From sequence record DRR378314_2561: 40,230 nucleotides of DNA, one strand, 5' to 3'. The position numbers and the translations under genes are program-made. Under the pieces are notes generated by a model. It made no database searches, had not been told where the DNA came from, and was given only the letters and a program-made list of their open reading frames with translations. This document shows positions 9,949-29,322 of this stretch, in pieces. The first letter of the stretch is position 1; every line of letters begins with the position of its first letter.

Positions 9949-12519
9949 ATGAAACGGCAAAATTCCAAAGAAGAAAAAGCTTCCTCCCTTTTGTTTGAGG
10001 GTGACCGAAAGCTACGGACGTTGGTGGAAAACCTCCCGGGCATTGTATTTCGCTGTAAGAACGATTCGGACAGAACCATGCAGTTCATCAGCAATGAGTG
10101 CAAATGCGTCACAGGATATTGGCCCGAACAATTTTGCAAGTCAGATGGAATCGCTTGGGGAAGTCTGATTCACCCCATGGACAAGGATGATGTATGGAAC
10201 GCGGTACAATTGGCCTTGGGCAAAAACGAAAAGTTTCAGTTGAAATACCGGATAATAGATAAAGAGGGGAAGATTCACTGGATCAGTGAAACCGGAATTG
10301 CAGTGGAAAAAAAAGAAGGCACGGCCTATCTGGAAGGATATATGCAAGATATCACCACCCAAATCATGGGCGGCAACATCAATGTTATCAAGGAGAGGGC
10401 CTTGGATGAGGTAGGGAATGGAATCATCATAGCAAATGCGCAACTCAAACAATTTCCCATTATCCATGTCAACCAGGCTTTTGAAAGAATAACCGGTTAC
10501 TCCAAGGAAGAAGTCGTTGGAAAAAATTGTAATTTTCTTCAAAGTGATGACCGCCAGCAAAAGGAAATCCAAATCATTCGAGATGCACTCGCGACCCAAT
10601 CTCCTTGCCATGTGGAGATACGAAATTACGGGAAAGATGGGACCATGTTCTGGAATGAACTATCTATTACCCCAGTACGGAACCTCAATGGGGAAACCAC
10701 ACATTTTATAGGTATTCAAAACGACATTACGGAAAGAAAGAACCTAGAGTTTTTAAGAAAAGGCAAGAATGACATTTTTGAAATGATCATAAAAAAAAGG
10801 CCCCTGCCCGAAATTTTTGACCGTGTTCAAGAAGTGCTGGAGCAACAAATACGTATAGGTACCGTGGCAATCACTCTATATGATGATGCCAAACAAATGC
10901 CCAAGAGGGTTTCTGGAAGTAAAACACACCCTGCAATTGGCAAGGTCATGGACCAAATTTTAGCTATATCGGATTCTTGTCCCTGTATACGGGCCATACA
11001 GTCCAAAAAAAGAGCAAGGGTCGCCAATATTCTGGACGAACCTTCATGGTCCAAGTACCGGTCCGAATTGACCAAGGCTGGTTTCAAATCCATCAGTTCC
11101 TCCCCTATTTTAGATGCTGATAATCACATTCTAGCCGTTTTATCCGCTTTTTACCCTTCTGAACACCATCCTTACTTTGAAAAGGAAGAATTGGTCGATG
11201 AGATGGTCGGTCTTATCGGTTTGGCCATTGAACAAAAGAAGATTCGCGAAAAATTGCAAACGAATCAAAAGCATTTGGAGACTTATTCCAAAGGGTTGGA
11301 AAAACAAGTTGAGCAACGCAACAAAGACCTGAAAAAGATTCTGGATGAATTGACGGTAACAAATTTTGAGCTTATTGAGCAAGTTACAGATGCCAACGCT
11401 GCCAAGACAAGGGCAGAAATACAGGAAAGCATGCTTTTGGCCATCACCCAAAATTTCCCAAAAGGTGCTATTATACTGGTGGACAAGCAAATGCAAATCA
11501 ATTTTATAAAGGGTGCAGAGTTGAAACATCTCCAAGATCAGGTTTATTCAAAAAAAGCATCAACCATAATGGAATTTGATGGATTGTCAACAAGCAGTAA
11601 ACGCCTTTTGAAATATCACATGATCCAGGCCCTAAAAGGCAAACATCTAAGTTTTGAAATCGAGTATAAGAACAGTAATTATATAATCAACACCACTCCC
11701 ATATTGTCTAAAGATGGTGAAGTTACCCATGCAGTACTCGTTCTATTAAATATATCAGAGAGAAAACGAAACGAGGAGAGAATCCTTAAAAACCTAAAAA
11801 AGGAAAAGGAACTAAGTGAGCTCAAGACCAGATTCATCAGTACTGCTTCCCATGAGTTCAGGACACCTCTGAGCATTATTCTGTCTTCAACTTCATTGAT
11901 AGAAAAACTCAACGGGCCTGAAAAAACAGAAAGGCGTTTGTTCCATTTGGAAAGAATAAAAACCAATGTGGAACATCTGGTAAACATACTGAACGATTTT
12001 CTATCGCTCACCAAATTAGAGGAAGGGGAAACCAAACCCACCCCTGAATTTTTTGACTTATTACAATTGTCAAAATCCTTGATCCAGCAAATGGAAGTGA
12101 ATACAAAAAACGGTCAGAGCATTGTTTTGGAGTGCTACCATTCAAAGATGGAGATTTACCTGGATCCCAAACTGGTGCAACACATACTGCTGAACCTCAT
12201 AAGCAATGCCATTAAATATTCTGATGAAAACCAACCCATTATCCTAAGGATTGAGGAAGAATCGCAAAAGGTAAAAATCCAGGTGATCGATCAGGGTATA
12301 GGAATACCTGAAGAGGACAAACCGTATCTTTTTCGACGGTTCTTCAGGGCGAGAAATAGCATTAATGTTCAAGGGACCGGGCTTGGGCTGCACATTGTAA
12401 AATCATATACGGAATTAATGAGAGGAGAACTATGGTATGAAAGTAAGGAGAACCATGGTACCTCTTTCGAATTAAAGTTTCCTAAACACTATAAAAATGA
12501 AAAAAGTATTGGTAATTGA
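9949..12519 (+). CDS. Cytoplasmic sensor histidine kinase: PAS - LOV-type PAS - GAF - coiled coil - PAS-like - HisKA - HATPase
   Basis: No TM segment; GKNCNFLQ..RNYGKDGTMFWN..FIGIQND; H-box ASHEFRTPL; N-box NLISNAIKYS; DQGIGI; GTGLGL. Confidence 0.93.
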   Translation: MKRQNSKEEKASSLLFEGDRKLRTLVENLPGIVFRCKNDSDRTMQFISNECKCVTGYWPEQFCKSDGIAWGSLIHPMDKDDVWNAVQLALGKNEKFQLKYRIIDKEGKIHWISETGIAVEKKEGTAYLEGYMQDITTQIMGGNINVIKERALDEVGNGIIIANAQLKQFPIIHVNQAFERITGYSKEEVVGKNCNFLQSDDRQQKEIQIIRDALATQSPCHVEIRNYGKDGTMFWNELSITPVRNLNGETTHFIGIQNDITERKNLEFLRKGKNDIFEMIIKKRPLPEIFDRVQEVLEQQIRIGTVAITLYDDAKQMPKRVSGSKTHPAIGKVMDQILAISDSCPCIRAIQSKKRARVANILDEPSWSKYRSELTKAGFKSISSSPILDADNHILAVLSAFYPSEHHPYFEKEELVDEMVGLIGLAIEQKKIREKLQTNQKHLETYSKGLEKQVEQRNKDLKKILDELTVTNFELIEQVTDANAAKTRAEIQESMLLAITQNFPKGAIILVDKQMQINFIKGAELKHLQDQVYSKKASTIMEFDGLSTSSKRLLKYHMIQALKGKHLSFEIEYKNSNYIINTTPILSKDGEVTHAVLVLLNISERKRNEERILKNLKKEKELSELKTRFISTASHEFRTPLSIILSSTSLIEKLNGPEKTERRLFHLERIKTNVEHLVNILNDFLSLTKLEEGETKPTPEFFDLLQLSKSLIQQMEVNTKNGQSIVLECYHSKMEIYLDPKLVQHILLNLISNAIKYSDENQPIILRIEEESQKVKIQVIDQGIGIPEEDKPYLFRRFFRARNSINVQGTGLGLHIVKSYTELMRGELWYESKENHGTSFELKFPKHYKNEKSIGN

Positions 12520-13576
12520 AGACAACAGGGAGGTCCGCGAGAACACGGTGGAAATTCTTGAGTTGGCCAACTATAACGTAATAGCTGCGGCCAATGGCAG
12601 GGCAGGCATCCAAATGGCCATGGAACATCTACCCGATATCATCATCAGCGACATAGTAATGCCCGAAGCAAATGGATATACCGTACTGGAAGTCTTGAGC
12701 CAAAACAGCGATACAGCAAACATTCCCTTTATTTTTTTAAGCGCCAAAGACAAGAAGGAAGATATAAGAATGGGGATGAGCCTTGGAGCCGATGATTATA
12801 TTTATAAACCTTATCGGTCACAGGAACTATTGGATGCCGTGGAAATGCGGATAAAGAAACATAACTTTATCCAGCAAAAGTTTTCAAAGACCCCAGTCGG
12901 CATCAACCATTTTTTTAAGGAGGTATCCGAATATCTGGGAAAAGAACTCATTTCCAAAGAAAGGGAACCCCAACTTTTTAAGGATAGGGAGAGAATCTAT
13001 CAAGAAGGGAACGCTGCACATTATCTCTATTTTATAGAAGATGGAAACATAAAGACTTTTAGGGGCACGGAAAGCGGCAAAGAAATGATTACCGGACTAT
13101 ATGGGCCCGGGGACTTTGTAGGGCAACTATCTTTGTTGGGAAGTGGCGGCACTTATCTAGAAACGGCCATCGTAATGGAACATGCCAAAGTACTCGGCAT
13201 TCCCAAGGAAGATTTTATTCACCTGGTATACCAGGACAAGGAAGTGGCGAATAAATTCCTTGGCATTATCTCCAACAATATGATCGACCTACAAGGAAAA
13301 TTGATAGACATCGCCTATTCATCTGTGGATCGGCGGGCAGCAAAAGCCCTGCTGGAACTTCACGAAAAGGGCATCCTTAAAGATGAGCATCATAAAGGTG
13401 TGGATATGCTTCGGGAAGATTTTGCCTCTTTGATCGGTGTAGCCAAGGAAACCGCCATCAGGACACTTACCAAATTCAGGGAAATTGGTCTTGTAGGTAC
13501 TGATAAAAAGAGGAAACTTACCATATTGGATATTGACCGTTTAAAACGTATCGCAGATTTTGAAGGTATGCTTTGA
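12497..13576 (+). CDS. Response regulator with receiver + Crp/Fnr-type effector and HTH domain
   Basis: VIED, PDIIISD(52), FLSAK, YIYKP; Crp beta-roll IYQEG..LYFIEDGNIK..GDFVG; HTH REDFASLIGVAKETAIRTL; overlaps kinase stop. Confidence 0.93.
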   Translation: MKKVLVIEDNREVRENTVEILELANYNVIAAANGRAGIQMAMEHLPDIIISDIVMPEANGYTVLEVLSQNSDTANIPFIFLSAKDKKEDIRMGMSLGADDYIYKPYRSQELLDAVEMRIKKHNFIQQKFSKTPVGINHFFKEVSEYLGKELISKEREPQLFKDRERIYQEGNAAHYLYFIEDGNIKTFRGTESGKEMITGLYGPGDFVGQLSLLGSGGTYLETAIVMEHAKVLGIPKEDFIHLVYQDKEVANKFLGIISNNMIDLQGKLIDIAYSSVDRRAAKALLELHEKGILKDEHHKGVDMLREDFASLIGVAKETAIRTLTKFREIGLVGTDKKRKLTILDIDRLKRIADFEGML

Positions 13577-18506: not shown

Positions 18507-18550
18507 TAAAAATAACGGCTGGGATATTCTTTGAAAATGATCTTCATCAT
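18507..18550 (-). promoter_or_regulatory. Regulon box + -7 element
   Basis: ATGATCTTCATCAT 18537-18550; 22 nt; TATTTTTA on minus strand 18507-18514. Confidence 0.8.
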
Positions 18551-18569
18551 ACCAAAATGGATACCTTGA

Positions 18570-18613
18570 ATGATGAACATCATTGATAGCAGTAGGCGTT
18601 TACTTTAACTTTC
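18570..18613 (+). promoter_or_regulatory. Regulon box + -7 element for hydrolase-PRTase
   Basis: ATGATGAACATCAT 18570-18583; 22 nt; TAACTTTC 18606-18613. Confidence 0.8.
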
Positions 18614-20060: not shown

Positions 20061-20471
20061 CTACATATCAAAAACTACATGGCTTTCCCAAATCTTTTCT
20101 TCATTCCTTCTCACACTTGTAGCAAGATACGAAACCCCTCTTATTCTTTCATCAAAGCTCCCCAACCATTTACCATAGAGTTGGGCCGAAATGCTATTCT
20201 CCGAAAACTCGGAAAAATAAACATTACAGAAAAGGGTCTTCTGCATATAGGTAAGGGAAAGAACGTCCGAGAGGAAATCAATCAGGAGGTCGGTCGCATT
20301 ATCAGTGGAAATCTCAATGCACATCTGACAGTCAAAATGACCGACGTTGTCACAGCCTCCCTTTTTCAGGATATCGTTCATGATTCCAAGATTATCCTTT
20401 AAAAGTATCTTAAGCGTAGGTGCCAGTACCTTTATTTCAATACCTGCCGTATGTTGTACCAACCCATTCAT
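20061..20471 (-). CDS. Archease family protein (degenerate)
   Basis: HTAG (canonical HTAD), LLIDFLSDVL, IRGVSYL (canonical IKAVTYH), terminal VFDM. Confidence 0.75.
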   Translation of the reverse strand: MNGLVQHTAGIEIKVLAPTLKILLKDNLGIMNDILKKGGCDNVGHFDCQMCIEISTDNATDLLIDFLSDVLSLTYMQKTLFCNVYFSEFSENSISAQLYGKWLGSFDERIRGVSYLATSVRRNEEKIWESHVVFDM

Positions 20472-21106
20472 GGCTTTATCGCTTTTACGGTCACAAAAGA
20501 TCCCAATCCATGACCGGTTTTGGGAATCTGCACTTCTTTGATGCTTTCCAGTTCACCAAAAAGGGTCTGGTTATATTTCATGTTTTTGAACCCTGATTTT
20601 TTCAGCAGTTGTTCCAACTCACTTACCGAATAAAAAGTTGCTGTTCTGTAAAAATTGCTTCGATCCCTTTTGCCCATATAGGATTTTGCAATGCTACGTT
20701 CTTTGTCCAAAAAACCGATAATAATGGCCCCATCCGATTTTAAAACACGAAAAGCTTCGGACAAGGCTTTTTTTACATTGCTAAAATGGCAAATGGTGAC
20801 AAAAAGGACAAAATCAAACTGCAAGGCGGAATAGGGCAAGTGCTCTGCTTTACCTTTCATGATTTCAATCCCTCTGTCAAATGCTTTTTTTGCCATCTCC
20901 AGAGAAGGCTCAATTCCTTCCTTGATGCCCAAAGGTTCGGAGAACCTTCCAGTGCCCAGGCCTACCTCAATTCCCTTTATGTTCTGGGGCATCTCCAAAA
21001 ACTGCTCCTGTAATGCCAATATTTCGGACTGATACACCTCGGGATGGTCCTCGTACCATTGCTCGTATTGGGATACATGTTCATCAAATACTGCTGTAGT
21101 TGCCAT
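20468..21106 (-). CDS. Class I SAM-dependent methyltransferase
   Basis: GIEVGLGTGRF, AEHLPY..FDFV, EAFRVLKSDG. Confidence 0.9.
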   Translation of the reverse strand: MATTAVFDEHVSQYEQWYEDHPEVYQSEILALQEQFLEMPQNIKGIEVGLGTGRFSEPLGIKEGIEPSLEMAKKAFDRGIEIMKGKAEHLPYSALQFDFVLFVTICHFSNVKKALSEAFRVLKSDGAIIIGFLDKERSIAKSYMGKRDRSNFYRTATFYSVSELEQLLKKSGFKNMKYNQTLFGELESIKEVQIPKTGHGLGSFVTVKAIKP

Positions 21107-22290: not shown

Positions 22291-24690
22291 ATGGATGATT
22301 ACATCAAACCTTTTAAAGCAATACATATTGATGACTTACCAAAAGTTGGTGGGAAAAATGCCTCATTGGGTGAAATGTACAATGAATTGATAGAGGAAGG
22401 GGTTCGAGTTCCTAATGGTTTTGCAACCACATCGGATGCTTTCTGGGATTTTTTGGATAAAAATCAACTTCGAAAACCTTTGGAAGACGTTTTGGCAAGT
22501 TTGGATACAAACACATATGTCAACTTAAATGAAATTGGCAAAAAGGCGCGGGATTTGATATTGGGCGGAACCTTTTCAGATGAATTTTCCCAAAAGATAG
22601 TGGAAGCCTACCAAAATCTTGACAAGAGTGGTTCTGCCACTGTTGCCGTAAGGAGCAGTGCCACGGCCGAAGACCTTCCCGGTGCCAGTTTTGCAGGGCA
22701 ACATGACACGTTTTTGAACATAAAAGGGGAAAAGCAAGTTCTGGAGGCGGTTAAAAAATGTTTTGCCTCCCTATATACGGATAGGGCCATCAAATATCGT
22801 AACGACAAGGGTTTTAAACATGCTGATGTTGCCCTATCGGTAGGTGTGCAGCAAATGGTAAGGGCAGATAAGGGCTGTTCGGGTGTGGGGTTTACCATAG
22901 AGCCTGAATCCGGTTTTGAAAATGTCATTCTGTTGTCCGGGGTTTGGGGCCTCGGGGAAAACATCGTACAGGGCAATGTCAATCCTGATGAGTTCTATGT
23001 TTTTAAACCCACCTTGAAAACAGGACACTTCCCCATCATCCAAAAAAAGAAGGGCGACAAACGTTTGACCATGATCTATAACACAGATCAGCACGGAGAA
23101 CCAACATTGAACATCAAGACCCCAGTTTCCAAGCAGGTCCAGTTTGTCCTCTCCGATAATGAGATTGTGCAATTGGCCCAATGGGCCATGGCCATAGAAA
23201 AACATTACCAAAAACCCATGGACATTGAGTGGGCCAAGGATGGTCTATCCAACGAGCTTTTTATCATTCAGGCACGGCCGGAAACGGTGCATCAAGGCAG
23301 GGACATGAACATATATATTGAGTACAAATTGCTTGAAAAAGGAACGATACTCACCTCTGGAAATGCCGTTGGTTCAAAAATAAAAGTGGGTACAGTACTC
23401 CAATTGAAATCCCCCAAAGAAGCCAAAAACCTAACATCGGAACACTTGATCGTGACCGATACCATAACCCCGGATTGGGATCCGCTCCTAAAACAGGTTG
23501 GTGGGATCATCACCAACAAAGGTGGGCGTACCAGCCATGCAGCCATTGTTGCCCGCGAATTGGGAGTGCCTGCCATTGTTGGCTGTGGCAATGCCACTGA
23601 TGTTCTTTCAAATGGTCAGAATGTTACCCTGTCCTGTGCCCAAGGGAAAACCGGCCACATTTATAATGGAGCTTTAAAATTTGAGGAAACCAAGGTAGAT
23701 TTTTCAAATATCCTTTTGCCTGATACTGAGGTCAAAATGATTCTGTCCGACCCCGAGAGTGCATTTCAACTCTCTTTTTATCCCAATAACGGCGTGGGAT
23801 TATTGCGTATGGAATTTATTATAACCCATTCGGTGAAAATCCACCCCATGGCCTTGGTCAATTTTGACAGCATCAAAAATGAAGGTGCAAAAAATGAAAT
23901 CGAAATGCTTACCAAGGGCTATCCCAAGAGGACGGATTATTTCATAGACCAGCTTTCACAGGGAATTGCCACTATTGCCGCGGCTTTTTATCCCAAAGAA
24001 GTCATTGTGCGGCTCAGCGATTTTAAGACGAATGAATATGCCAACCTCATCGGAGGAAAAGATTTTGAGCCCAAAGAGGAAAACCCCATGCTGGGCTTTA
24101 GAGGCGCCTCCCGTTACTACAGCGATCGGTACAAGGATGGATTTGCGCTTGAATGTGCAGCCATAAAAAGGGTTAGGGATACCATGGGTTTGACCAACCT
24201 TAAGGTAATGGTACCCTTTTGCCGCACCCTATTGGAAGGAAAGAAAGTACTCCTGATAATGGAGGAAAACGGATTGAAAAGAGGGGAAAATGGGCTTGAG
24301 ATCTATACCATGGTCGAAATACCCAGCAATGTGATCTTGGCTGAGGAGTTTGCACAGATCTTTGATGGCTTTTCCATTGGTTCCAACGATCTTACACAAC
24401 TTACTTTGGGGATTGACCGTGACTCGGAAATAATGGGTGGTCTCTTTGATGAAAATGACCCCGCTGCCAAAAAGATGATTTCCATGGCCATCTCATCTGC
24501 AAAAAAGACCGAGACCAAAATTGGACTCTGTGGGCAAGCACCAAGTGATTTTCCCGAGTTTGCGGCTTTTTTGGTGGACCTGGGCATCAACAGTATTTCC
24601 TTTAATCCCGATGCGTTGTTGAAAGGGATAAAGAACATCAACAAGGCAGAAAAAAGAATGGTTGATAGAAAAAGTACGTTCTTGGCTTGA
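22291..24690 (+). CDS. ppsA: Phosphoenolpyruvate synthase
   Basis: VGGKNASLGEM, AVRSSATAED, DIEWA, GGRTSHAAIVARE phospho-His, EENPMLGFRGASRY, FSIGSNDL. Confidence 0.96.
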   Translation: MDDYIKPFKAIHIDDLPKVGGKNASLGEMYNELIEEGVRVPNGFATTSDAFWDFLDKNQLRKPLEDVLASLDTNTYVNLNEIGKKARDLILGGTFSDEFSQKIVEAYQNLDKSGSATVAVRSSATAEDLPGASFAGQHDTFLNIKGEKQVLEAVKKCFASLYTDRAIKYRNDKGFKHADVALSVGVQQMVRADKGCSGVGFTIEPESGFENVILLSGVWGLGENIVQGNVNPDEFYVFKPTLKTGHFPIIQKKKGDKRLTMIYNTDQHGEPTLNIKTPVSKQVQFVLSDNEIVQLAQWAMAIEKHYQKPMDIEWAKDGLSNELFIIQARPETVHQGRDMNIYIEYKLLEKGTILTSGNAVGSKIKVGTVLQLKSPKEAKNLTSEHLIVTDTITPDWDPLLKQVGGIITNKGGRTSHAAIVARELGVPAIVGCGNATDVLSNGQNVTLSCAQGKTGHIYNGALKFEETKVDFSNILLPDTEVKMILSDPESAFQLSFYPNNGVGLLRMEFIITHSVKIHPMALVNFDSIKNEGAKNEIEMLTKGYPKRTDYFIDQLSQGIATIAAAFYPKEVIVRLSDFKTNEYANLIGGKDFEPKEENPMLGFRGASRYYSDRYKDGFALECAAIKRVRDTMGLTNLKVMVPFCRTLLEGKKVLLIMEENGLKRGENGLEIYTMVEIPSNVILAEEFAQIFDGFSIGSNDLTQLTLGIDRDSEIMGGLFDENDPAAKKMISMAISSAKKTETKIGLCGQAPSDFPEFAAFLVDLGINSISFNPDALLKGIKNINKAEKRMVDRKSTFLA

Positions 24691-24754
24691 CATTGAACTC
24701 GTAAGAAATGACAATGTTGTCCAAAATGTTAAAATTTGAAAAAAAAGTACCCAG

Positions 24755-24798
24755 ATGATCCAGATCATTTCAAAGCCAAAACAATCGCCTTAATTTAG
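24755..24798 (+). promoter_or_regulatory. Regulon box + -7 element with no credible downstream CDS
   Basis: ATGATCCAGATCAT 24755-24768; 22 nt; TAATTTAG 24791-24798. Confidence 0.82.
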
Positions 24799-24802
24799 CA
24801 CC

Positions 24803-25000
24803 AAGATTACGATACTATACGTTCTTTGAAGATAAAAACCATTGGTTTAATAAATACAGAGGGAGATACAACTATTCTTTGACTCCTCTTGGAATTGCAA
24901 AAATGTTTAGTGATAAACACTAGTAGCATATACAAGAAAAAGAGCGTTGGGTAGGATAACTTCTTCTGTGAAACCGGGGCATTAAAATGCTCCGGTTTCT
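24803..25000 (+). ncRNA. Candidate ~200-nt regulon-controlled small RNA
   Basis: Follows a consensus promoter; only a 6-codon ATG ORF before the closing stem; hairpins incl. TGTTTA-GTGA-TAAACA (24904-24919) and closing stem 24970-24999. Confidence 0.5.
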
Positions 25001-25274
25001 ACAAAAACTATAGAAAAATAGTTAATTGGAAAAAAGCCAATGGTAATAAAAGGTGTTTTTATAAGGCACGAGGATTTGAATATCAACCACATTTTTCCAA
25101 ATGCGGAGAACGATCCTCCTCTCCATCAAAAACACCCCATAAAATGTTTATGGTCTGAGAGGATACATAAACTAGAAGGGTTTGGATTGTCCACTGAACA
25201 ATCTTTTTTAAGCATTTTAGCAATAAGATGGTATAGAGAAAGTTTAAGGCAGAAAGCAACTCAAGCCTTTCGAA

Positions 25275-25302
25275 GAAACAGGGAGTCTTGGCTCCCTGTT
25301 TC
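25275..25302. terminator. Strong hairpin (terminator-like)
   Basis: GAAACAGGGAG-tcttgg-CTCCCTGTTTC, perfect 11-bp stem; poor U-tract. Confidence 0.5.
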
Positions 25303-25369
25303 CATTTAAATTCCGTCCATTCTCCTTAGTAATGGTGTATTGTTCCCTAAATTAATTCATTCTGAAAAA

Positions 25370-25771
25370 ATGGAATATTATTTCAATACCGTTCTCAGTG
25401 ACATCACTTTTGAAAAAGCTATACAAAAAACCACCCAAGCCCTTAAAAATGAAGGTTTCGGGGTTCTTACCGAAATTGACATCAGGAATACATTGAAGCA
25501 GAAATTGGATGTACACTTTCCCAATTATACAATTTTGGGAGCATGTAACCCCTCATTTGCCCATAAAGCATTACAGGTAGAAAACAAGATTGGCACCATG
25601 CTTCCTTGTAATGTAATCGTAAGTGAAGCCGAAGATGGTAACATAGAGGTGGCCGCCGTAAATCCCATTGCTTCGATGATGGGAGTCCACAATGAGGCCT
25701 TGATGGGCATTGCCGAGGAGGTCCGGGACAAACTCAAAAGAGTGATAGAGGCCCTTCAAGAAAGTCATTGA
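25370..25771 (+). CDS. DUF302 domain protein
   Basis: LKNEGFGVLTEIDI, YTILGACNPSFA, IGTMLPCNVIV; ATG 25370. Confidence 0.9.
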   Translation: MEYYFNTVLSDITFEKAIQKTTQALKNEGFGVLTEIDIRNTLKQKLDVHFPNYTILGACNPSFAHKALQVENKIGTMLPCNVIVSEAEDGNIEVAAVNPIASMMGVHNEALMGIAEEVRDKLKRVIEALQESH

Positions 25772-25795
25772 CCCATATCAACAAAGTATACCGTC

Positions 25796-25966
25796 ATGGA
25801 ATCTTCAAATATTTGCCAACACTGTGGAAAGCCCATGTACCACCTTACCGATTTTGGAACCAACCGGGATGGCACTATCAATACGGAATATTGCCACAAA
25901 TGCTATCAAAAAGGTACGTTTATCCATCCAGGGGAAGAAAACTTTGATCAACAGAAGGTACTTTAG
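25796..25966 (+). CDS. Putative zinc-ribbon protein, 56 aa (not in ORF track)
   Basis: MESSNICQHCGKPMYHLTDFGTNRDGTINTEYCHKCYQKGTFIHPGEENFDQQKVL; two CxxC pairs, Zn_ribbon_2-like pattern. Confidence 0.78.
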   Translation: MESSNICQHCGKPMYHLTDFGTNRDGTINTEYCHKCYQKGTFIHPGEENFDQQKVL

Positions 25967-26021
25967 TGTTTTTTATGCTTCAATTTTTTTGCTGATAGCG
26001 CAGCATCGAAGCCAAAAACAA

Positions 26022-26783
26022 TCATGCAATGACCATCCCACCATCTACAACATAAGTACCACCAGTGATATACCTGCTTTCATCCGAAGCCAGGAAAAGA
26101 ACCAAATTCACAATTTCGCCAGCTTCGGCATAGCGCCCGAAGGGTACACTGGCCTCAAATCCCTTTTTGGCCCCGTCGCTGTCCTCTGGTGAAATATCGG
26201 CCTCTATCCTGCGCATCATGTCGGTTTCCACAGGGCCCGGATGTATGGTATTTACGCGTATTTTTTTGTTGGAAAACTCTAGGGCCGCGGTGCGCATGAT
26301 ACCCACAACGCCATGTTTGCTGGCCACATAGGCACCCAAACCTTCAAAACCTTTAAGACCGGCCACCGAGGAAGTGATAATGACACTTCCCCCCTGCTCC
26401 ATTTTCGGGATCACATACTTGCATCCGTACCAAACGCCTTTCAAGTTTACATCCATGACCTTGTTGAAGATATCATCGGGGTAGTCTGCCATGGATCTTG
26501 AGGTTCCTTCAATGCCCGCATTGTTGAAAAAAACATCGATTTTGCCAAACTTGTCCAACGCTATCCGAACGTATTCTTTTACAGCATCCGCTTTGGATAC
26601 GTCTGCCGTACAATAGGCAACATTGGGATTATTGAACCCTTCAACTGTTTCTTTTAGGCTCTTTTCGTTAATGTCTACCAAAAGCACTTTGGCTCCTTCC
26701 CGCAAGAAAGTTTTAGCAGTCTCTTTGCCTATTCCCGCGGCTCCTCCGGTGATTATGGCCACTTTATTGTCCAATCTTTTCAT
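26022..26783 (-). CDS. Short-chain dehydrogenase/reductase
   Basis: TGGAAGIG, NNAG, YVASK, IRVNTIHPG. Confidence 0.95.
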   Translation of the reverse strand: MKRLDNKVAIITGGAAGIGKETAKTFLREGAKVLLVDINEKSLKETVEGFNNPNVAYCTADVSKADAVKEYVRIALDKFGKIDVFFNNAGIEGTSRSMADYPDDIFNKVMDVNLKGVWYGCKYVIPKMEQGGSVIITSSVAGLKGFEGLGAYVASKHGVVGIMRTAALEFSNKKIRVNTIHPGPVETDMMRRIEADISPEDSDGAKKGFEASVPFGRYAEAGEIVNLVLFLASDESRYITGGTYVVDGGMVIA

Positions 26784-27457
26784 GGTTTCTGGATTTGTTC
26801 ACTAATGTTGGAGATTTGGAAATCACTGTCGCTGGTCTTTATCAGTATCAGATTGGGCGAAATGAAGGATGCCGTCAAATTTGGTGTCTGATATCTCCTT
26901 TTAATCATGGAGATATTTTCTCTTTTACTGATGGGCCAAATAATTTCACCTTGGGTATTCAGAATAACTTCGGTAAAGGCATATTCATAAATATTCAGCT
27001 GAAAGTTATTTTTCCCCCTGAAAGTTCTCCTGCAATAGATCCCTATGGCCCTGTCATCTTCAAAACCTGTAACATTCAGATACTCTGGTTCGATTACAAT
27101 TCTTCCTTGGGTGTCCATAAACCCGTAATATGGAATTCCCTCATCCTTTATTTCTTGGATGGCACATAGACCGTTCTTAAATTTCGGGTACCTGATGCCC
27201 TTGATATCGCTATGGGACTCATCCGCATTTTGGTTCCAGACCACATCATCCCTAAAATCTATGACCAGATTGCCCTCTTGGTCTATAAAGCCCCATTTAA
27301 CGCCTTTCCGGACGGCTGCCAACCCTTCGCTGAAAGGGCCCACTTCGTCAAGCTCCTTTATTTTGACCGTTGGATCATTTATTGTCTCCAGGGTTTGTGC
27401 ACCCATTACAAATGGGAAGGCCATAAAAGCCATTCCCACTAAATATTTCAGTCCCAT
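26780..27457 (-). CDS. WG-repeat secreted protein
   Basis: Signal peptide; FSEGLAAVRKGVKWGFID, YGFMDTQGRIVIEPEY. Confidence 0.85.
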   Translation of the reverse strand: MGLKYLVGMAFMAFPFVMGAQTLETINDPTVKIKELDEVGPFSEGLAAVRKGVKWGFIDQEGNLVIDFRDDVVWNQNADESHSDIKGIRYPKFKNGLCAIQEIKDEGIPYYGFMDTQGRIVIEPEYLNVTGFEDDRAIGIYCRRTFRGKNNFQLNIYEYAFTEVILNTQGEIIWPISKRENISMIKRRYQTPNLTASFISPNLILIKTSDSDFQISNISEQIQKP

Positions 27458-27478
27458 AATTCATTTTTTTATATTGAT

Positions 27479-27522
27479 TCAAGGTAGGTCAAATGCCGTT
27501 CTGTAAAAATGATTTAAATCAG
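27479..27522 (-). promoter_or_regulatory. Regulon box + -7 element for WG-SDR
   Basis: ATGATTTAAATCAG 27509-27522; 22 nt; TACCTTGA on minus strand 27479-27486. Confidence 0.72.
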
Positions 27523-28108: not shown

Positions 28109-28152
28109 ATGACCCAAATCATTTCCATGTGAAGGAAATAGAGGTTTCTTTG
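28109..28152 (+). promoter_or_regulatory. Regulon box + -7 element for the baeRF-like gene
   Basis: ATGACCCAAATCAT 28109-28122; 22 nt; TTTCTTTG 28145-28152. Confidence 0.78.
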
Positions 28153-28176
28153 AATTCCTATAAATTTAAATTGACC

Positions 28177-29322
28177 ATGAAAAAAGAAGATATAGAACTG
28201 TTGGCAGGAGAACATGCAGCTCCCTGTGTCTCCATTTATATGCCAACCCATAGAACAGGCGAAGCCGTTCTGAAGGGCCATGATAGACTTCTGCTCAAAA
28301 ACCTTTTGAAAGATGTGAAACGTAATCTGGCCAATCAGGAATATGACAAAAAAACAATTAGTGCCCTTGCCGCCCCTATACAAGAATTGATCGATGCCAA
28401 ACACGATTGGAACTTCAGGTCCGAAGGTCTTGTCCTTTTTATTTCCCCAGATCTTTTCATGACATTCCAACTTCCTTTAAAGTTTTCCCCTCAGACCAGT
28501 ATTTCCTCAGTATTTTACCTGGTTCCCCTAATGCCCTTTTTTGTGGATGGCGAAAACTTTATCCTCTTGACTTTGGAACTCAACGAAGTGAAGCTTTATA
28601 AGGTCGGTCGGTACAGCATTAAGGAGATTTATATTGAGGAAAAAATCCCTTCCCGGATGGAAGATCAAGTAGGTTATGACCATGAACAGAAAAATTTGCA
28701 ATTCAGAAGCCAACAGCAAGCTTATGGAGAAGCCATGTTCCATGGCCAAGGTGAGGGGAAAGAAGATAGAAAAGATGAAATCCTGACTTTTTTTAGAGGT
28801 ATTGACCGTGGATTGTCCTCCATTTTAAGTGCAGAAAATACTCCTTTGCTCCTCGCAGGGCTGGACGAGCAGATTTCAATCTATAAAAAGGCCAATTCCT
28901 ATCACAACCTCTTTGAAAAACATCTTTCATGCCATCCATCTGACCTAAGTTCGGATGAACTGCAAATAGGGGCTTGGAAGCTTTTGGAATCCCATTTTGA
29001 CCAAGAACGAAACGAAAAATTGGAGATGTTCCAGCGTTACCAAGACACGGGGAGAACCTCACAACAGATCAATGAAATTATCCCAATGGCCATTCAGGGC
29101 AGAGTGGACACGCTTTTTATCCAATATGATATGGATGTATGGGGAACCTACGACCCAACAAACAACCTTTTAAAAATAAGTCACGAACACCGGTCTCCTG
29201 CCGTACCCTTGGATAATTTGATGGTGGTAAATACTTTTCTACAGGGAGGTAAGATATACTTAATGGACAAGATGGAAATGCCCGTTCCAAGCTCGGAGTG
29301 CTGTGCCATTTTCCGTAAATGA
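28177..29322 (+). CDS. Bacterial archaeo-eukaryotic release factor-like protein (baeRF3/7-type; Balon-like)
   Basis: CVSIYMPTHRTG, GLVLF, FHGQG..FFRGIDRGL, PLLLAG, GRVDTLF, AIFR end; no GGQ; ATG 28177 lies downstream of the promoter. Confidence 0.75.
   Translation: MKKEDIELLAGEHAAPCVSIYMPTHRTGEAVLKGHDRLLLKNLLKDVKRNLANQEYDKKTISALAAPIQELIDAKHDWNFRSEGLVLFISPDLFMTFQLPLKFSPQTSISSVFYLVPLMPFFVDGENFILLTLELNEVKLYKVGRYSIKEIYIEEKIPSRMEDQVGYDHEQKNLQFRSQQQAYGEAMFHGQGEGKEDRKDEILTFFRGIDRGLSSILSAENTPLLLAGLDEQISIYKKANSYHNLFEKHLSCHPSDLSSDELQIGAWKLLESHFDQERNEKLEMFQRYQDTGRTSQQINEIIPMAIQGRVDTLFIQYDMDVWGTYDPTNNLLKISHEHRSPAVPLDNLMVVNTFLQGGKIYLMDKMEMPVPSSECCAIFRK

Follow-up and report, generated by a model that had tools for sequence, protein, structure and literature searches.

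The stretch of DNA analysed here (the window; 40,230 nucleotides of sequence record DRR378314_2561) is collinear with Muricauda sp. TY007 at 82% identity, and the genome nearest to it, G001, served as the working reference. As assigned by Pfam, the window carries a stress island with genes for three Usp proteins, Hsp20, a P-type ATPase, a PAS/GAF kinase and a REC-cNMP-HTH_Crp regulator, as well as for archease and a methyltransferase, ppsA, DUF302, two DUF2267 proteins, baeRF, YtxH, flavodoxin, and FtsH. The kinase gene, encoding a PAS/LOV-like-GAF histidine kinase (9949-12519, + strand), and the gene of the REC-cNMP-HTH_Crp response regulator (12497-13576, + strand) are both Pfam assignments. 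The PAS_9 match of the kinase holds GKNCNFLQS and, further on, FIGIQNDITERK, which resemble the LOV blue-light flavin consensus; judging from this motif, the island and the RNA described below might respond to light besides redox or oxygen. At 20061-21106 (- strand) the genes for archease and a SAM methyltransferase overlap, and the gene for baeRF, an eRF1-like protein, lies near (28129-29322, + strand). Archease, methyltransferase and baeRF are RNA- or ribosome-handling proteins and could be candidate partners of the RNA.

Between the ppsA/PEP synthase gene (22291-24690) and the ATG of the DUF302 gene (25370-25771, + strand, Pfam 4.9e-24), which is followed by a Zn_ribbon_2 gene (25796-25966, + strand, Pfam 1.1e-13), there is an intergenic interval of 680 nt. 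The initial annotation had described about 570 nt without a credible gene behind the promoter, and this description holds: 571 nt separate the -7 promoter element from the DUF302 ATG, and the sole sizeable open reading frame in them (89 aa, 25040-25309, + strand, inside the RNA) is not conserved. In the 99%-identical copy in G001 the frame contains a stop codon, in two relatives (L003/L004) it is hit by a 19-nt deletion, and elsewhere other frames are open; the variable columns number 16, 14 and 13 by codon position, so there is no codon periodicity, and the frame has no Pfam match. On these grounds the coding reading of the frame was rejected and it was judged not to be a gene. The interval thus has no conserved coding frame, and the RNA gene within it is non-coding.

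The interval opens with a CRP/FNR-type palindromic box, ATGATCCAGATCAT (24755-24768, not assigned to a strand; core TGAT-N4-ATCA at 24756-24767), followed by an element TAATTTAG (24791-24798, + strand) of the type TAnnTTTG, the Bacteroidota -7 consensus. Both are found where they had been placed by the initial annotation, at the canonical distance from each other. The 40-kb window contains eight TGAT-N4-ATCA cores, against 1.32 +/- 1.10 expected (0/100 shuffles reach 8), and all eight lie between open reading frames; in four of them (6333+, 16822-, 24756+, 32545+) TAnnTTnG follows exactly 23 nt past the core, the same spacing as at the box described here. Two boxes, TGATCTTCATCA and TGATGAACATCA, stand 33 nt apart in a single divergent intergenic region (18538-18582), and the other six are single. 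A box of the form TGAY-N4-RTCA is retained 97-120 nt 5' of the first RNA module in every verified homologue inspected, which agrees with the earlier proposal that a regulon box drives the RNA gene, and TAnnTT is free of gaps in the alignment of 17 homologues. Transcription would start at about 24803-24807, which would make this a class-II-like promoter, with the CRP/FNR-type box approximately 40 nt 5' of the start in addition to the Bacteroidota -7 element.

Downstream of the putative start lies a conserved 5' motif, GTTCTTTGAA (24821-24830, + strand), which occurs once per transcript and is predicted to be mostly unpaired. It is found exactly, or with one or two changes, across the 17 aligned homologues, which represent several genera, and in most inspected homologues it stands approximately 20 nt 3' of the -7 element; in some members it has drifted (L020, as well as L162-L164, where CGTTCT.. 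is found). None of the other boxes in the window is followed by the motif, and its complement is not enriched in the window (8 matches with at most one mismatch, 6.55 expected).

The + strand of the interval folds far better than shuffled sequence, both for 24800-25010 (z = -5.1; 0/200 shuffles as good) and for 24800-25320 (z = -7.7; 0/100 shuffles as good). All of the structural elements that the initial annotation had pointed out are present at the positions given: AAACC-att-GGTTT at 24836-24848, TGTTTA-GTGA-TAAACA at 24904-24919, a purine-rich run at 24934-24956, and the closing stem, which is a 13-bp hairpin at 24970-24999 followed by TACAAAAAC with no U-tract. The segments AGAGGGAG (24858-24865) and CTCCTCT (24883-24889) were placed correctly as well, but the partner of AGAGGGAG supported by covariation is CTTCTTCTG (24960-24968) and not CTCCTCT. 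The pairing of AGAGGGAG with CTTCTTCTG closes a long helix spanning 24856-24969.

These elements belong to two modules built on the same plan, in which a long covarying helix capped by UUUA-GNRA-UAAA is followed by a terminator-like hairpin of the form GAAAC...GUUUC. Module 1 (24853-25002, + strand) consists of the irregular long helix 24856-24969 with its apical GUUUA-GUGA-UAAAC (24905-24918) and of hairpin A, GAAACCGGGGCAU-UAAA-AUGCUCCGGUUUC (24970-24999, + strand), after which comes UACAAAAAC in the window. A clade-specific spacer of about 140 nt (25003-25141, + strand), which contains small hairpins and differs by a 19-nt indel in two relatives, connects it with module 2 (25142-25305, + strand), which comprises a hairpin at 25146-25172, a long helix at 25175-25271 with the apical hairpin CAUUUUA-GCAA-UAAGAUG (25213-25230), and hairpin B. 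The latter (25275-25302, + strand) was reported as a terminator by the terminator scan and has an interrupted U-tract tail, CAUUUAAAUU. The spacer is absent from two relatives (L025/L026), where module 2 lies within 4-5 nt of module 1. The stem of terminator B (GAAACAGGAGG...CCUCCUGUUU) is unusually constant across genera (29 loci), and its AAAC/GUUU is invariant in 24/24 aligned sequences, which exceeds what a terminator needs. An antiterminator formed by the 3' half of hairpin A and the 5' half of hairpin B was considered and dropped by eye, since changes in hairpin A are not mirrored in hairpin B.

The predicted pairing is supported by covariation. In a window-clade alignment of seven copies, RNAalifold predicts 125 pairs, 19 of them with compensatory changes. 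For module 1 (alignment A5, 10 sequences), 94.2% of the cells are paired and 17/48 pairs are changed on both sides (0/500 shuffles as good; 41-51% of cells paired in slid controls), and for module 2 (alignment A6, 24 sequences) the corresponding values are 91.9% and 47/53 (0/500 shuffles as good; 41-52% of cells paired in slid controls), figures that are generous because both alignments were fitted to models, which favours pairing, and because the sequences are related. The margin over the slid controls is large even so. Hairpin A, which is helix 6 of A5, is 100% paired, with four pairs changed on both sides. Many G-U pairs fit the + strand only, as at one pair of A6 that is U-G in 11/24 sequences. 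The apical loops are conserved as the GNRA class and not as a sequence, occurring as GUGA, GCGA, GGGA, GCAA, GAGA, GUAA, and GAAA.

Homologues of the RNA were sought by BLAST and with three covariance models, two of them for module 1 (R1, and R3 built from ten more diverse sequences) and one for module 2 (R2); within the window, module 1 scores 173.7 bits with R1 and 160.6 bits with R3, and module 2 scores 188.9 bits with R2, the E-values of these models being rough. The proposed check across Flavobacteriaceae revealed conservation of both sequence and structure. BLAST found single-copy homologues extending from the box to hairpin B at 70-99% identity in 7/101 genomes of the genus, R1 matched in 15/101 of these genomes, so that the distribution within the genus is patchy, and R3 matched in 9/151 genera of the family, each represented by one genome. 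Outside the family, R3 had no match in any of 136 genomes representing 17 families of the same order. A scan of public genomes for the pattern box - TAnnTT - GYTCTTTGAA gave at least 120 stretches, 80 of which were made into loci and divided by record titles into 40 from Flavobacteriaceae/Flavobacteriales and 40 from other taxa. Among the pattern matches listed, R3 recognized 31/40 of the former and, as a negative control, 0/40 of the latter, and the genera named included Muricauda, Flagellimonas, Maribacter, Arenibacter, Winogradskyella, Eudoraea, Kordia, Lutibacter, Sediminicola, Robiginitalea, Aurantibacter, and Psychroserpens. As far as searched, the RNA family is confined to Flavobacteriaceae. 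The possibility of a repeat or mobile element was rejected, as genomes have a single locus each and the additional matches are due to hairpins on the reverse strand.

The architecture of the RNA gene varies considerably in different members. Each promoter is followed by one to four modules. Three loci (L020-L022) have a single module, end at the equivalent of hairpin A followed by UUUCUUUUUAUU, and face a convergent gene. In L025/L026 the abutting modules are followed by a long U-tract and then by a second box with an unrelated gene, and in L025, L026, L036, L037, and L038 a strong U-tract precedes a second box, behind which lies a further gene or RNA copy. A Eudoraea locus (L057, 1218-2070) contains four modules behind one promoter, three of them near-identical and of type 1, with a period of 199 nt, and one of type 2. 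Entire promoter-RNA units are also repeated in tandem, with three complete units at a period of approximately 450 nt in Winogradskyella thalassocola (L113, 2001-3350) and four in an uncultured Flavobacteriaceae genome (L118, 2001-3700). In L162-L164 (genomes G111, G113, and G080) the RNA gene and the regulator gene are convergent, with about 200 nt between the RNA gene and the end of the regulator gene, and a second box stands 50-60 nt upstream of the RNA's own box. Four Arenibacter loci (L061, L082, L084, and L108, ~2070-2400) keep the box, the -7 element and GTTCTTTGAA, followed by a different RNA body, which shares CTAAGCAG..GCCTTAGCG.CCATAAA with the inter-module spacer of L023/L024 and has a strong terminator at its end, with DUF302 coming next. 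It probably represents a third module type missed by R1-R3.

The RNA gene usually lies within a few kilobases of the gene of the REC-cNMP-HTH(Crp) regulator. Orthologues of the regulator (at least 51% identity) are present in 19/101 genomes of the genus, and the RNA was found in 15 of these 19 genomes (12 through R1 and 3 more through R3) vs 3/82 of the others; across genera the regulator is present in 10/151, and the RNA in 5/10 carriers vs 4/141 others, counts that refer to related and therefore not independent genomes. In the three genus genomes added by R3, about 200 nt separate the RNA from the end of the regulator gene, and in each of the five cross-genus carriers the distance between RNA and regulator gene is 0.8-11 kb. 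The neighbours most often found within approximately 2 kb of 50 loci include the regulator (12), DUF302 (11), DUF2267 (10), and ppsA (8). The RNA was not found in four regulator-carrying genomes of the genus and in five regulator-carrying genera, and in two genomes (G066/G102) the RNA is present and the regulator is represented only by a paralogue with 35-37% identity. Judging from co-occurrence and closeness, the regulator that binds the box is presumably the REC-cNMP-HTH_Crp protein.

Expression data were available as assembled contigs, from which neither the ends nor the strand nor the level of a transcript can be read and in which DNA carry-over is possible. The metatranscriptome contigs of one RNA library cover 24869-25273 and 25256-25398 and that of a second library, from another study, covers 24869-25087; contigs of both libraries cross hairpin A, and none lie over ppsA or the body of DUF302. 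In a run of uncertain type (X1), the depth was 3.7 over ppsA vs 30-42 over the RNA, and a single 2548-nt contig extends from 24901 through DUF302 and beyond, which fits a long leader as well as read-through. Parts of the stretch that are uncovered in two further runs (X13 and X15) are not evidence of silence. As a whole, the contigs are compatible with an abundant RNA that extends beyond 25000 and is read through to some degree.

The segment 24755-25312 is conserved and structured, is linked to the box and to the island, and lacks a coding frame. We consider it likely to be a gene in its own right, driven by the box, that encodes a structured non-coding RNA of approximately 500 nt from an uncatalogued family. 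Independence of the gene is indicated by the convergent genes that follow the RNA in L020-L022 and L162-L164, as well as by the U-tracts followed by a second box in L025/L026 and L036-L038. The promoter would presumably be activated by the response regulator of the island, acting together with the PAS/LOV-like-GAF kinase, and the transcript would comprise, in this order, a conserved 5' segment (GUUCUUUGAA), module 1, the clade-specific spacer and module 2, ending at about 25305. Some transcripts may leak past hairpin B into the DUF302 and Zn-ribbon genes. Because both hairpins have poor U-tracts in the window, it is not certain that a stable RNA with discrete ends is formed.

The initial annotation had proposed a regulon-controlled RNA of about 200 nt. 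Its regulon control and structured nature stand, but the length does not apply here, as conservation and covariation go on to 25275-25302. A discrete FnrS-like RNA of this length that ends at hairpin A (24999) and acts through a single-stranded seed as the repressive arm of the regulon is, in our view, unlikely in the window genome. It accounts well for the single-module loci L020-L022, in which a real U-tract follows the equivalent hairpin, so that an RNA of about 200 nt ending at hairpin A holds for those members. The hairpin A equivalent is a U-tract terminator in most relatives, with UUUCUUU following it in most other genera, where short forms of the RNA therefore probably exist, and the conserved and mostly unpaired 10-nt 5' motif, present once per transcript, could be the seed. 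In the window clade, however, hairpin A is followed by UACAAAAAC or a similar sequence, module 2 is as conserved as module 1 and covaries, and the contigs from the RNA libraries bridge hairpin A; the lack of an Hfq match in five carrier genomes, the lack of enrichment of the motif complement in the window, and loops that are conserved by class and not by sequence likewise speak against a seed-based short RNA. Since hairpin A lacks its U-tract, module 2 is conserved and covarying, and contigs extend across hairpin A, the transcript in the window genome is most likely about 500 nt long and not about 200 nt, with transcription running on to hairpin B as a consequence of the lost U-tract.

The RNA might instead be a cis-acting 5' leader of the DUF302 and Zn-ribbon genes, that is, a structured attenuator with terminator B gated by a ligand, a protein, or temperature, which we regard as improbable. 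DUF302 follows the RNA directly and on the same strand in 8/8 members of the window clade, including one that lacks the upstream ppsA (L007), as well as in 11/50 other loci, which belong to several genera; TGAT-N4-ATCA does not occur from 24768 to 27510, which leaves DUF302 and Zn_ribbon_2 without a box of their own, and the X1 contig continues from the RNA into DUF302. The RNA is nevertheless more than a leader of DUF302, because in 39/50 loci no DUF302 gene is found within approximately 2 kb; thus, the constant position 5' of one gene family that is typical of riboswitches and leaders is not seen here. In various members the next gene is convergent, or a second box with an unrelated gene or more RNA units come next, many loci have uninterrupted U5-U9 tracts, and inspection revealed no conserved alternative pairing of the antiterminator type. 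The 10 nt past terminator B contain on average 4.7 T with DUF302 next (10 loci) vs 5.7 otherwise (19 loci), a difference that points toward a leader but is small, with half of the DUF302 group belonging to one clade. A relation between leakiness of the terminator and a downstream DUF302 gene had been considered on this basis and, the loci not being independent, is not used as evidence. For the independent RNA gene, read-through of hairpin B probably places DUF302 and Zn-ribbon under control of the box, because the U-tract of hairpin B is interrupted (CAUUUAAAUU) and DUF302 has no box of its own.

That there is no RNA gene at all, and that the interval holds either a small protein gene or a repeat or mobile element with inverted repeats that mimic structure, is hardly credible: the 89-aa frame at 25040-25309, the GAAAC...GUUUC ends common to both hairpins and the tandem recurrence of modules could be read in this way, but the frame is interrupted in G001, shifted in two relatives, and devoid of periodicity and of a Pfam match, there is one locus per genome, always behind a box promoter and in the same island, and the strand-specific covariation with G-U pairs supports an RNA.

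With regard to function, we can tentatively propose that the independent RNA acts in trans as a multivalent folded scaffold, the GNRA-capped arms of which may bind or sequester a protein or an RNA under stress; this seems plausible rather than probable. The proposal is based on the observations that nearly every pair covaries, that the loops are kept as GNRA regardless of sequence, and that the dosage of modules varies. The main alternative mechanism, somewhat less likely in our estimation, is that the 5' motif acts as a pairing seed. With its conserved GNRA-capped helices and variable number of modules, the RNA looks more like a shaped scaffold than like a seed-pairing sRNA. A search for Hfq (PF17209) gave no match in five carrier genomes, with the control search matching in 5/14 known genomes, and neither did one for CsrA (PF02599), the control of which matched in E. 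coli, B. subtilis, and T. maritima; since neither protein was found and the controls matched, a Csr or Hfq system is excluded for these carriers.

The family is uncatalogued. The initial annotation had suggested a scan of Rfam, and none of the 4227 models of Rfam 15 matches anywhere in the window at gathering thresholds, so that no known family is recognized. At E <= 10 in 24600-25500, the best sub-threshold match is FinP on hairpin B (23.2 bits vs a cut-off of 45), and at E <= 1 in the loci of six diverse relatives, only a neighbouring tRNA passes the threshold. The literature search returned nothing on this RNA or on a box regulon of Usp and Hsp20 in Flavobacteriaceae, although the supplements of PMC9723704 could list a homologue. 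That publication describes other sRNAs of Flavobacterium psychrophilum (Rfp18 etc.), and the term TAnnTTTG occurs in it, as well as in PMC7366714.

Marine Flavobacteriaceae dominate the degradation of algal blooms. To our knowledge, few regulatory RNAs have been described in Bacteroidota beyond gut Bacteroides, and almost none in marine Flavobacteriaceae. The present RNA adds a well-supported new family, ready for an Rfam entry, with dozens of members, for which the promoter signal is defined and a regulator is probable. An unusual trait is the repeat architecture of one to four modules, each with a terminator-like hairpin at its end. The RNA offers a handle on an unstudied stress island (Usp, Hsp20, FtsH, ppsA, DUF302, DUF2267, baeRF, and archease) and on the post-transcriptional effects of the regulator of this island.

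Comparison with known systems reveals partial likenesses only. FnrS of Enterobacteriaceae (Rfam RF01796) is an RNA of about 120 nt that depends on Hfq and acts via seed pairing. Like it, the present RNA is encoded by a stand-alone non-coding gene with a CRP/FNR-type palindrome at a class-II-like distance, which marks it as an output of the regulon; the box lies 23 nt before the -7 element. Unlike FnrS, it is about 500 nt long here, consists of folded modules of 150 nt, occurs in carriers without detectable Hfq (0/5), and has no match in Rfam. As for a seed, a conserved 5' motif is present, but no target signal was found in the window. DrrS/MTS1338 of Mycobacterium tuberculosis is an abundant structured RNA regulated by DosR within a stress and dormancy regulon rich in Usp and Hsp20. 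The likeness lies in a structured RNA that belongs to a Usp/Hsp20 stress regulon under a two-component response regulator, presumed in the present case, whereas the phylum is unrelated, the regulator family, sequence, size, and architecture are different, and no homology is to be expected.

Among same-phylum non-coding RNA candidates that, like the present one, originate from comparative genomics, Flavo-1 (RF01705 in PMC2864571) and 6S-Flavo match neither 24600-25500 (E <= 10) nor the loci of the six relatives (E <= 1). The large RNAs OLE, ROOL, GOLLD, and raiA share with this RNA a length of hundreds of nucleotides, heavy covariation, GNRA tetraloops, and a link to stress or special conditions; it differs from them in being modular and taxonomically narrower, and their Rfam models match neither the window nor the six relatives.

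The closest analogy for the mode of action may be offered by CsrB and RsmX/Y/Z, whose units are short GGA hairpins that bind CsrA. Variable repeated units and tandem copies in some genomes are common to both, as probably is a promoter under a two-component response regulator. The units described here are, in contrast, approximately 150 nt long with GNRA caps and no GGA hairpins, and CsrA was found in 0/5 carriers, so that the RNA is not a member of that group. We can speculate that it represents a new class of large modular RNAs that display GNRA loops as an output of the stress island, a scaffold tuned in dosage by the number of modules that would either sequester an RNA-binding protein or multimerize, alone or with other RNAs, through tetraloop contacts; this is a possibility we hold with some doubt. 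If it were true, the signal for the kinase and REC-Crp island might be light or redox, given the LOV-like motif, and Bacteroidota, a phylum without Hfq and CsrA, would have in this RNA their counterpart of CsrB, 6S, or OLE-type RNAs.
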